Shown here: positions 6,529 through 7,113 of the stretch, piece after piece
How positions within the stretch are numbered: the stretch's first letter is position 1
Layout of the letters: every line of letters starts with the position of its first letter
DNA from: a virus
Strand: one strand, 5' to 3'
DNA: 24,840 nucleotides
UHGV virus genome: UHGV-0183909
Made by a program: the position numbers and the translations under genes
Notes under the pieces: model-generated
The model's input: the letters and a program-made list of their open reading frames with translations, nothing else
Told to the model about the DNA's origin: nothing
The model's database searches: none

Positions 6529-6545
6529 ACAACCTCCTAAAAAAG

Positions 6546-6566
6546 AGCCCGCCGTGACGCGGGCGA
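6546..6566 (-). terminator. Hairpin GCCCGC/GCGGGC followed by a U-run on the minus strand, immediately upstream of the first early-left ORF (candidate terminator or attenuator)
   Basis: Minus strand reads CGCCCGCGTCACGGCGGGCTCTTTTTTAGGAGGTT then ATG. Confidence 0.45.
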
Positions 6567-6785
6567 AGAAGATTTTTCAAATTTAACCAGAACGAATCGT
6601 CGTCTCCTTTCTGGTTGAGATGGCGTTATTACCATCACCAAGCGCTCAAGAAACGCTTGAGGCTGGCCACTATGTCAGACACTGCAATGACTGACGTCAG
6701 TTCTCCACACAACTGGAAGCGCACTCATGAGTTTGAATTTAACGACACCGCCTGTTTAGAGAACGGTGAGTGCGCTTTCATGTTG

Positions 6786-6832
6786 TGTAAAAAGGGCGGT
6801 ACCGGACTTCATGGGATGGTATTGGTACCGCC
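6786..6832 (-). terminator. 9-bp stem (GGCGGTACC/GGTACCGCC) followed by CUUUUU on the minus strand; terminator-like element in the PL leader
   Basis: Inverted repeat and T-run read directly; the ~20-nt loop is long for a canonical intrinsic terminator. Confidence 0.3.
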
Positions 6833-6867
6833 AAGACTACACACAGCTACATCTCTTCACTGAGATA

Positions 6868-6943
6868 TGGTGAGGCATACAGGATTCGAACCTGTGACCT
6901 ACGGCTTAGAAGGCCGCTGCTCTATCCACTGAGCTAATGCCAC
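6868..6943 (-). tRNA. Phage-encoded tRNA-Arg (anticodon UCU, reads AGA)
   Basis: Minus-strand sequence GTGGCATTAGCTCAGTGGATAGAGCAGCGGCCTTCTAAGCCGTAGGTCACAGGTTCGAATCCTGTATGCCTCACCA. Cloverleaf has U8-A9, D-arm GCTC/GAGC, anticodon loop CU-UCU-AA, T-loop TTCGAAT and 3' CCA; one U-U mismatch at acceptor pair 2-71. Confidence 0.8.
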
Positions 6944-6946
6944 AAC

Positions 6947-7011
6947 GGTAAGAGCATTTGTCGAGGACTCTTGCGAACCCGGAGACTCGATCACCTACAA
7001 ATGCTCTTGCC
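6947..7011 (-). other. Long imperfect inverted repeat (11-14 bp stem, ~37-nt loop) directly 5' of the tRNA-Arg in the PL leader; possible structured RNA or tRNA remnant
   Basis: AAGAGCATTTG at 6950-6960 pairs with CAAATGCTCTT at 6998-7008; not a recognisable cloverleaf. Confidence 0.35.
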
Positions 7012-7021
7012 TGTTGTGTCC

Positions 7022-7064
7022 TCGAAAAAGATGGCTGTCACAAAGTGAGGGAAGTGACAGCCAT
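7022..7064 (-). terminator. 11-bp hairpin (ATGGCTGTCAC/GTGACAGCCAT) followed by CUUUUU on the minus strand, shortly downstream of PL
   Basis: Inverted repeat and T-run read directly. Confidence 0.4.
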
Positions 7065-7113
7065 TACAGGATACCGAGGCTTCACCAGATGACCGGGTTG
7101 TATTGCCATCTGA

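Follow-up and report, generated by a model that had tools for sequence, protein, structure and literature searches.

The window analysed here is UHGV virus genome UHGV-0183909 (24,840 nt), a lambdoid Escherichia coli prophage, and our subject is the minus-strand interval between its CI-like repressor gene (cI) and the first early-left open reading frame (ORF1). This interval is a mosaic of RNA modules common to other lambdoid prophages, and we consider it reasonably probable that it forms a processed tRNA/small RNA (sRNA) cassette of the dicBF type at the head of the operon transcribed from the early-left promoter (PL), with three terminator-like structures (T1, T2 and T3) acting as leaky attenuators or insulators. 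An earlier reading of the same DNA (the original prediction) had left open whether this leader holds a put-like antiterminator RNA, a processed cluster of tRNA and non-coding RNA, or an attenuator. The cluster is borne out by a putative DicF-family sRNA and by covarying hairpins, but the put-like RNA is not, as the corresponding covariance model is negative and a second copy is missing. On the transcript, the modules would follow one another as promoter-proximal RNA with T1, hairpin A, tRNA, DicF-family sRNA with T2, hairpin B and 5' untranslated region (5'UTR) with T3:

7239-7222, minus strand: terminator of cI, just upstream of PL (terminator scan; kept in the related locus L001).
7121-7163, minus strand: PL and its operators (OL), with -35 TTGCAT at 7150-7145 and -10 TATAGT at 7126-7121 (18-nt spacing).
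7081-7117, minus strand: hairpin 1, 13-bp stem-loop, 5'-terminal in the PL transcript (-17.2 kcal/mol, z = -5.4).
7065-7080, minus strand: linker, within an invariant 23-mer, GCCUCGGUAUCCUGUAAUGGCUG, which extends into the T1 stem (exact-match scan).
7025-7064, minus strand: T1, intrinsic-terminator-like, 11-bp hairpin (12-nt loop) with CUUUUU directly behind it (-18.6 kcal/mol, z = -5.1).
6944-7019, minus strand: long hairpin A (ACACAAC..AAGAGCA...UGCUCUU..GUUGUG), a candidate RNase III site (-25.1 kcal/mol, z = -2.9).
6868-6943, minus strand: tRNA-Arg, anticodon UCU, encoded CCA (ARAGORN; Rfam tRNA, 70.5 bits).
6789-6847, minus strand: putative DicF-family sRNA (GCUGUGUGUAGUCUUGGCGGUACC-loop-GGUACCGCCCUUUUU) with its own terminator T2 (covariance model R2; DicF-like region -23.5 kcal/mol, z = -3.7).
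6703-6792, minus strand: long hairpin B, ~25 bp (ACACAACAUGAAAGCGCACUC...GAGUGCGCUUCCAGUUGUGU; -34.7 kcal/mol, z = -5.2).
6529-6702, minus strand: structured 5'UTR of ORF1 (RNAalifold consensus).
6695-6585, minus strand: stems of the 5'UTR, namely S1 (6695-6674, conserved loop AUUGCAGU), S2 (6659-6639), S3 (6636-6619) and S4 (6616-6585); S2-S4 fold at -30.2 kcal/mol, z = -4.4.
6564-6547, minus strand: stem of T3, followed by a U-run (U6) at 6544-6539 (-14.2 kcal/mol, z = -3.6; terminator scan).
6208-6528, minus strand: ORF1, first early-left ORF, 106 aa, phrog_13002, function unknown (PHROG scan).

The hairpins and the tRNA-Arg(UCU) listed in the original prediction are all found on the minus strand, at or a few bases off the positions given there, and the 606-nt stretch as a whole folds at -231 kcal/mol in comparison to -177 +/- 5 for dinucleotide shuffles (z = -10.4), which is clearly stronger than expected from composition. 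Two details changed: the stem described as 11 bp at 6776-6717 is present but is actually the core of the ~25-bp hairpin B at 6792-6703, and the earlier list lacked the 5'-terminal 13-bp hairpin of the transcript. Comparison with related prophages further showed that the stems of the interval are conserved or covarying.

The putative sRNA at 6847-6789 consists of a near-invariant 5' part (GCUGUGUGKAGUCUUGGCGGUACC), a variable loop and GGUACCGCCCUUUUU, and folding places T2, a 9-bp stem followed by CUUUUU, at 6832-6789. The DicF-like element was found in 61 variants in ~109 loci. The covariance model R2, trained on 20 window-type variants only, scores the window at 75.9 bits and also recovers the untrained K-12 dicF of the Qin prophage at L008:2884-2940 (30.9 bits, E = 4e-6; annotated gene 2883-2935), as well as additional variants at corresponding positions of other loci. 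Since the model matches a dicF on which it was not trained, we assign 6847-6789 to the DicF lineage as a divergent member, which is nevertheless outside RF00039 as curated. Standard annotation misses such a relative because its Rfam score is sub-threshold and because the RefSeq relatives leave the element unannotated.

The neighbourhood of the element points in the same direction. Qin is arranged as dicA (repressor), promoter, ydfABC, a long hairpin, ~125 nt, dicF and dicB, and hairpin B of the window is homologous to this Qin hairpin upstream of dicF, with GAAAGCGCA...UGUCGUUAAAUU...GUGCGCUUCC.GUUGUG in common. Hairpin A uses the same scaffold as hairpin B, its core AAGAGCA/UGCUCUU differing from AAGCGCA/UGCGCUU by a compensatory C-G to A-U change, and the last three nt of its basal stem are the first three nt of the tRNA. 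In several relatives (L044, L041, Citrobacter phage phiNP, L049, L059, L070), hairpin A is found again, either directly preceding the tRNA or following the DicF-like element. Altogether, the long-hairpin family comprises 40 distinct sense-strand instances, located either immediately in front of the tRNA or 47-49 nt after the DicF-like element begins, and an alignment of 16 sequences including Qin L008:2672-2762 (alignment A3) yields 18 pairs, 8 of them with compensatory changes. For Qin it has been shown that RNase III generates a 190-nt DicF precursor and RNase E a 53-nt form (PMC10448788), and that RNase III also yields a 72-nt DicF form whose 3' end lies downstream (PMC5069750). If the 190 nt of the precursor are measured upstream from the 3' end of DicF, RNase III would cut near L008:2746, within the 3' strand of the hairpin in Qin. 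By homology, hairpins A and B of the window may be RNase III sites that bracket the tRNA and the sRNA.

The tRNA itself has a complete cloverleaf with UCU anticodon and CCA, and in ~31 related loci it is placed 37 nt upstream of the DicF-like element. Its role is, as a standard inference, the supply of a rare-codon tRNA: AGA is used 8.0 times per 1000 codons in the phage genes of the window (12.9% of Arg codons), in comparison to about 2 per 1000 in E. coli genes, and the integrase-like ORF alone holds 7 AGA and 3 AGG codons. The acceptor stem contains one U2.U71 mismatch, and the version in L001 has U2.G71 and G3.U70 instead. Several Klebsiella phage records carry, at or close to their ends, 35-nt stretches with 100% identity to the 3' half of the tRNA (6912-6878); these stretches are possibly attachment sites.

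To place these modules in a wider context, related loci were collected by pattern scans of IMG/VR (~110 loci) and by a look-up of the exact cI protein, which gave ten E. coli-type assemblies with identical repressor; protein-based retrieval via ORF1 returned the identical contig only. E. coli prophages with equal layout (L001, L002) show cI, sometimes a moron on the opposite strand, tRNA-Arg and the early-left genes, and the leaders 3' of the same cI span 0.7-1.4 kb, mostly without ORFs. In a similarity search, different pieces of the interval match different phages: the tRNA is similar to those of phiV10/epsilon15-like and other phages, 6847-6764 matches phage phiNP and 6643-6530 matches HK225, and for the 5'-most 180 nt of the leader there was no match in 50,697 phage records. 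Mapped on all loci, the window modules shuffle independently. The identities and homologies of the modules, their conserved structures and their modular swapping can be read directly from the comparison. Rfam searches of the leader in gathering and E-value modes, which the original prediction had suggested as a check, returned the tRNA and a sub-threshold DicF match as the only hits above chance level; Trp_leader, STnc370 and others were at chance level.

Two further unannotated regions appeared in these loci. In many relatives, a ~350-nt "mid" region, ORF-free, GC-rich and hairpin-dense, separates the pre-tRNA hairpin from PL (or T1) (L058:5800-5440 on the minus strand, L137/L140:3880-4230, L096:9790-10150); it is missing from the window and has no Rfam match. 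In phage phiNP, the ~1 kb that separates the repressor gene from the first of the early genes (L004:2231-3224) is unannotated and holds a widespread PL-proximal element, a DicF-like element and a 118-nt long hairpin, together with T-arm-like motifs (GGTTCGATTCC) in a stretch where no tRNA is detectable.

At the downstream end of the interval, 6702-6529 looks like a cis-regulatory 5'UTR. This module accompanies ORF1 in 38 of 39 loci and occurs in three sequence types; in an RNAalifold consensus of 8 variants from the 3 types, 8 of the 56 pairs show compensatory changes. Stem S1 is formed by three different stems around the AUUGCAGU loop, and S2 contains a G-C to A-U change. Besides, an anti-Shine-Dalgarno helix pairs 6670-6661 with the region of the Shine-Dalgarno sequence (SD) at 6538-6529 and is accompanied by G.U to U-A and G-U to G-C changes, so that in the predicted fold this helix would sequester the ribosome-binding site of ORF1. 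T3 is conserved and directly precedes the SD AGGAGG (6538-6533) and the ATG at 6528. Candidate small ORFs across 6702-6529 are not conserved, and a "FWLNW" frame through T3 was rejected as a leader peptide, as the window offers no start codon for it and most of the substitutions in this frame are non-synonymous. In HK225, the annotated start of the hypothetical protein gp38 (L003:2999-3436) overlaps the homologue of the window 5'UTR, T3 and SD. The true start of gp38 is probably the ATG aligned with window position 6528, which would make the recorded coding sequence too long at its 5' end.

The transcript that carries these modules starts at a promoter of standard design, and the PL assignment of the original prediction holds. 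A perfect 13-bp operator palindrome, CTACTTAAAGTAG, overlaps PL as OL1 (7128-7140), a copy with 2 mismatches lies 23 bp away as OL2 (7151-7163), and the palindrome recurs in the cI/cro divergent region (8001-8013 and 7978-7990). From this layout, the transcription start is placed at ~7114, heading to 6528. A consensus promoter scan missed PL because the -35 fits 3 of 6 positions only. The same promoter and operator are found 3' of the same cI in L001 and in L132-L141.

In the first module behind PL, T1 lies ~50-90 nt past the transcription start, and the 23-mer GCCUCGGUAUCCUGUAAUGGCUG is present as an exact match in 14 IMG/VR contigs with three different PL/immunity types, in all of which the promoter-proximal element begins right after the -10 of PL; the element is also present in 4 of the 10 assemblies with the same cI. 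In an alignment of 12 distinct variants (alignment A2), both hairpins stay paired in 97.3% of cells. Hairpin 1 is paired in 94.7%, with 2 pairs changed on both sides, and its 5' strand differs in the three immunity groups while pairing with the conserved 3' strand is kept. The T1 helix is 100% paired in the 12 variants with U-A/U-G/C-G and G-C/G-U alternatives, and the U-run is retained in most of them. Conservation peaks in the unpaired tract and not in the stems. Nevertheless, the element is rare: one partial match was found in 5,426 complete E. coli genomes and none in 50,697 phage records, and two scans of 185,579 species-representative genomes gave no real match, the two found being chance matches in unrelated metagenome-assembled genomes. 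A blastn-short search did not find a second copy in the window. The element is also optional, as three relatives with identical cI, the same PL, tRNA and DicF-like terminator (L135, L137, L140) are without hairpin 1 and T1; L140 lacks them even though it also carries the 5'UTR with T3, and L133, L138 and L141 keep hairpin 1 and have an ORF in place of T1. Because the T1 element is absent beside identical cI and the same T2 and T3, it is not required for passing T2 and T3.

Several functions of this element have to be weighed. A trans-acting role is compatible with the cassette reading: the ~90-nt transcript from PL to T1 could be an induction-specific sRNA with the unpaired tract as its seed for mRNAs of host or phage. 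The architecture would fit, with a 5' stem-loop, an invariant unpaired tract and a terminator hairpin with U-run, and so would the conservation maximum in the unpaired tract and the movement of the cassette between immunity types. On the other hand, the U-run has just 5 U (4 in some variants), the element is rare in genome and phage collections, and no target was found, as pairing of the linker with phage translation-initiation regions is no better than chance. The sole standout in five tests of linker, loops and seeds was the T1 loop (7053-7042, CACUUCCCUCACUUUGUG), which is complementary to GGCAAGGUGUGGGAGGUU at 3608-3591, covering the SD of a 245-aa early-left gene at 2843-3580 (-22.8 kcal/mol, 0 of 200 shuffles better). 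As relatives with other loop sequences show no equivalent, this pairing is probably due to chance, and the T1 loop was not retained as a regulator of this gene. All in all, we regard a trans-acting sRNA at this position as rather unlikely. The broader proposal, that the ~90-nt RNA stands for a new class of RNA elements which N-less lambdoid phages carry at an early promoter, acting either as a cis antiterminator or as a trans sRNA in a swappable slot, is similarly tentative and has the odds clearly against it. If it were true, lambdoid phages would carry several interchangeable RNA-only solutions for early-left transcription control.

The cis-acting variant of this idea, in which the promoter-proximal RNA modifies RNA polymerase for readthrough of T2, T3 and later terminators, as an analogue and not a homologue of HK022 put, appears less probable still. 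It can draw on the position of the element, which with its two hairpins starts at the inferred +1 of PL as putL does (a positional match only), on the invariant 23-mer shared by three immunity types, on the absence of an N-like gene, and on same-immunity relatives that hold a different conserved element together with an exact boxA, a known antitermination signal, in the same slot. However, the second stem-loop has a conserved U-run and is therefore terminator-like, a 16-nt linker separates the stems, which is not the case in put, L135, L137 and L140 share cI and T2 (L140 also T3) but are without the element, and Qin dicBF reads through the DicF terminator without such an element (PMC10448788).

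The put consensus comprises stem I, stem II and conserved bulges, and readthrough by HK022-type put requires both the RNA and the zinc-binding domain of the beta-prime subunit. Membership in the put family was addressed separately with a covariance model (R1) built from HK022 putL/putR, the annotated "putL-like antiterminator RNA" of HK639, phiEt88, CobraSix, S9-5 and UPF_BP1. The model scores its training sequences at 90-100 bits and also recovers the putR of phiEt88, on which it was not trained, at 41.6 bits, but in the window it finds nothing in 6530-7125, its best match (8.3 bits, E ~1) lying outside the leader. It gave no match in the leaders of relatives either (L001, L002, phiNP, L029, L058, L096), and neither blastn-short nor R1 revealed a putR-like second copy in the rightward operon, so that put family membership was rejected. 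The optional distribution of the promoter-proximal element weighs against a put-like function as well. Taken together with the hairpin and U-run at the end of this element and its absence from same-cI relatives, the put-like antiterminator RNA of the original prediction is not sustained, and a put-like function of the leader is without positive support.

A protein-dependent mechanism, finally, would invoke an unrecognised phage or host protein, e.g. Q-like, that gives processive antitermination at PL with the hairpins as nut-like recognition sites; three terminator-like structures ahead of ten genes including xis and int, a Q-like protein (14044-14889) beside several uncharacterised regulators, and early-left proteins mostly of no known function would suit it, but no N-like ORF adjoins the putative site, the leader has no boxA within 3 mismatches, the PL and PR' regions show no similarity on reading and the modules are exchanged independently of the remaining phage genome, which makes this mechanism highly doubtful. 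The missing N-like gene had already been stressed in the original prediction, and this stands: minus-strand ORFs of at least 20 aa in the interval all overlap the tRNA, terminators or promoter, none of the small ORFs is conserved, and PHROG scans of all neighbours gave no N-like match, so that a lambda N/nut system with an Arg-rich N-like first PL gene is not found. An Arg-rich 34-aa ORF at 6537-6641 was discarded as an N-like gene, since stops and frameshifts break it in relatives.

For boxA, the consensus GCTCTTTAACAA had no match within 3 mismatches in 6530-7125, and UGCUCUUAC at 6960-6952 was dismissed as merely the 3' strand of hairpin A. A different picture emerged in an E. coli relative (NZ_CP136025), where L001:4063-4178 contains an unannotated ~70-nt conserved element after PL (AGCGAACAGGCAGGACGCCC...AUGAAUGACCGGAUGAUUCGC), a hairpin and an exact boxA, CGCUCUUUAACAA. 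The ~70-nt element is widespread in phages of the same or other immunity (SfV, SfII, SfIV, ST64B, ZF40, mEp460, phiNP) and does not match the put model. The boxA 12-mer CGCUCUUUAACAA occurs in 19 of 129 fetched loci, with ~0.1 expected by chance. The ~70-nt element and boxA are a candidate for a Nus-factor/boxA antitermination module in N-less phages.

Several observations argue against the tRNA/sRNA cassette as the explanation of the interval. Rfam DicF (RF00039) aligns with the same stem, but with 18.9 bits in comparison to a gathering score of 48. Pairing with the translation-initiation region of ftsZ was not separated from shuffles in duplexfold, a test that is insensitive because canonical DicF itself is not separated, and by eye there is no obvious complementarity. 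Moreover, if T1 or T3 were efficient, the intact tRNA and the ten genes that follow, xis and int among them, would need some antitermination in order not to be silent. T1-less relatives carry other conserved non-coding modules in the slot (the ~350-nt "mid" region, or the ~70-nt element with hairpin and boxA), so the slot as such could encode readthrough functions. With respect to the efficiency of the terminators, the original prediction had reasoned that three of them in front of ten genes call for antitermination. The terminators are present, but the need is weakened, because Qin transcripts end at and also read through the DicF terminator without a phage antiterminator: dicBF gives a transcript of 1,146 nt that stops at dicF and, by readthrough, one of 1,608 nt (PMC10448788). 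It is further weakened because a terminator scan of the rightward operon, from cro to the Q-like gene, revealed no strong intrinsic terminator, from which it follows that the phage is not generally reliant on an N-like function.

Weighing these points, an attenuator role for the three terminators remains the most economical reading, and for the window we infer RNase III cleavage, partial readthrough, insulation and sRNA activity along the following lines. Upon loss of the repressor, PL would fire, and at T1, T2 and T3 part of the polymerases would stop and the rest continue without a dedicated factor, as in Qin dicBF. Host RNase III, acting on the long hairpins, together with RNase P and RNase E would release the tRNA and the sRNA; the tRNA would supply the AGA-rich phage genes and the sRNA would act on host mRNAs. 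The three terminators and the cI terminator would grade operon expression and shield downstream genes from cI readthrough in the lysogen. Since transcription of cI, immediately upstream, runs the same way, stacked terminators would insulate the early-left genes in the lysogenic state.

The surrounding genome fits a lambdoid prophage that looks complete and not cryptic. Its left flank (60-1040) is 100% identical to the E. coli mtfA region and the prophage adjoins tRNA-Ser(CGA) (serU) at 1047-1136 on the plus strand (ARAGORN), beside the integrase-like ORF, which identifies the mtfA-serU locus of E. coli as insertion site; a partial tRNA lies at the window edge (1-55, minus strand). On the minus strand, the early-left order is cI, the studied interval, ten small ORFs of unknown function, the excisionase gene and an integrase-like ORF. 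The recognisable genes are:

1252-2241, minus strand: integrase-like ORF (position and sequence only).
2246-2470, minus strand: excisionase (PHROG scan).
7256-7975, minus strand: CI-like repressor, LexA-family (PHROG "transcriptional repressor").
8045-8311, plus strand: Cro-like gene (PHROG scan).
8304-8804, plus strand: CII-like gene (PHROG scan).
14044-14889, plus strand: Q-like antiterminator (PHROG scan); replication genes are likewise on the plus strand.

Two tandem strong intrinsic terminators at 14990-15044 (plus strand), ~100-150 nt past the Q-like gene, correspond to the expected tR'-type layout. In addition, Rfam int-alpA RNA (RF02996) matches 17479-17541 on the plus strand (41.8 bits, gathering score 35.8), in the gap preceding the ORFs 17563-17940 and 18101-19564.

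DicF, which blocks cell division, is among the oldest known bacterial sRNAs and has been studied almost solely in the defective Qin prophage. Our data show a cassette of this kind in a repressor-controlled prophage that appears complete, with candidate RNase III stems bracketing tRNA and sRNA. A lambdoid early-left operon with a DicF-type sRNA processed by RNase III was already known, as were phage tRNA-Arg genes; new are the unannotated, divergent DicF-family variant, its fixed coupling to tRNA-Arg between two putative processing hairpins, the conserved promoter-proximal RNA and the predicted SD-sequestering 5'UTR. Across ~140 compared loci, the post-PL region emerges as 0.7-1.4 kb of ORF-poor, modular and covarying RNA, which offers candidates for new DicF-family target specificities, for N-less passage of early terminators and for a 5'UTR that sequesters a ribosome-binding site, and corrects the "put-like" label of the leader as unsupported.

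Among known systems, Qin dicBF with the DicF sRNA (RF00039), an Hfq-binding RNA with a 5' end made by RNase E, is the closest. As in Qin, the window cassette belongs to a repressor-controlled operon of early-left type, directly 3' of the CI-like repressor gene, and combines an sRNA with a GGCGGUA.../...CCGCCC terminator stem and U-run with genes that follow downstream. In both, a homologous long hairpin stands beside the sRNA, and that of Qin would hold the RNase III cleavage site. The downstream genes of Qin are expressed by readthrough, and we take those of the window to be expressed likewise. In contrast to Qin DicF, the loop and the 5' sequences of the window element differ and no ftsZ complementarity was detected with the insensitive test. 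Between long hairpin and sRNA, the window carries tRNA-Arg(UCU), whereas Qin has ~125 nt of other sequence, and the window has a second long hairpin after the sRNA and no preceding ydfABC; Qin is cryptic, whereas the window prophage looks intact. The tRNA resembles the phage tRNA-Arg(UCU) genes of phiV10/epsilon15-like phages and argN/argO of Shiga toxin (Stx) phages, with the same anticodon, ~86-88% tRNA identity and the same presumed role for AGA-rich phage genes. Whereas those genes are located near int or upstream of late or toxin genes, the tRNA of the window lies inside the PL transcript, between hairpins of RNase III type and coupled to a putative DicF-family sRNA. The put elements of HK022 and HK639 share with the promoter-proximal RNA the location just 3' of PL in an N-less lambdoid phage and two stem-loops followed by terminators, but the window stems are separated by the invariant 16-nt linker instead of being adjacent, a U-run follows the second one, relatives of the same immunity can dispense with the element, and it matches R1 neither in sequence nor in structure. 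Finally, the arrangement of PL and T1 is reminiscent of lambda 6S and StxS (PR'-tR', early termination in Stx phages), where an intrinsic terminator within ~100 nt of the promoter yields a short RNA unless readthrough occurs; in contrast to these, the promoter of the window is PL and not PR', and no Q-binding or pause element was identified there.

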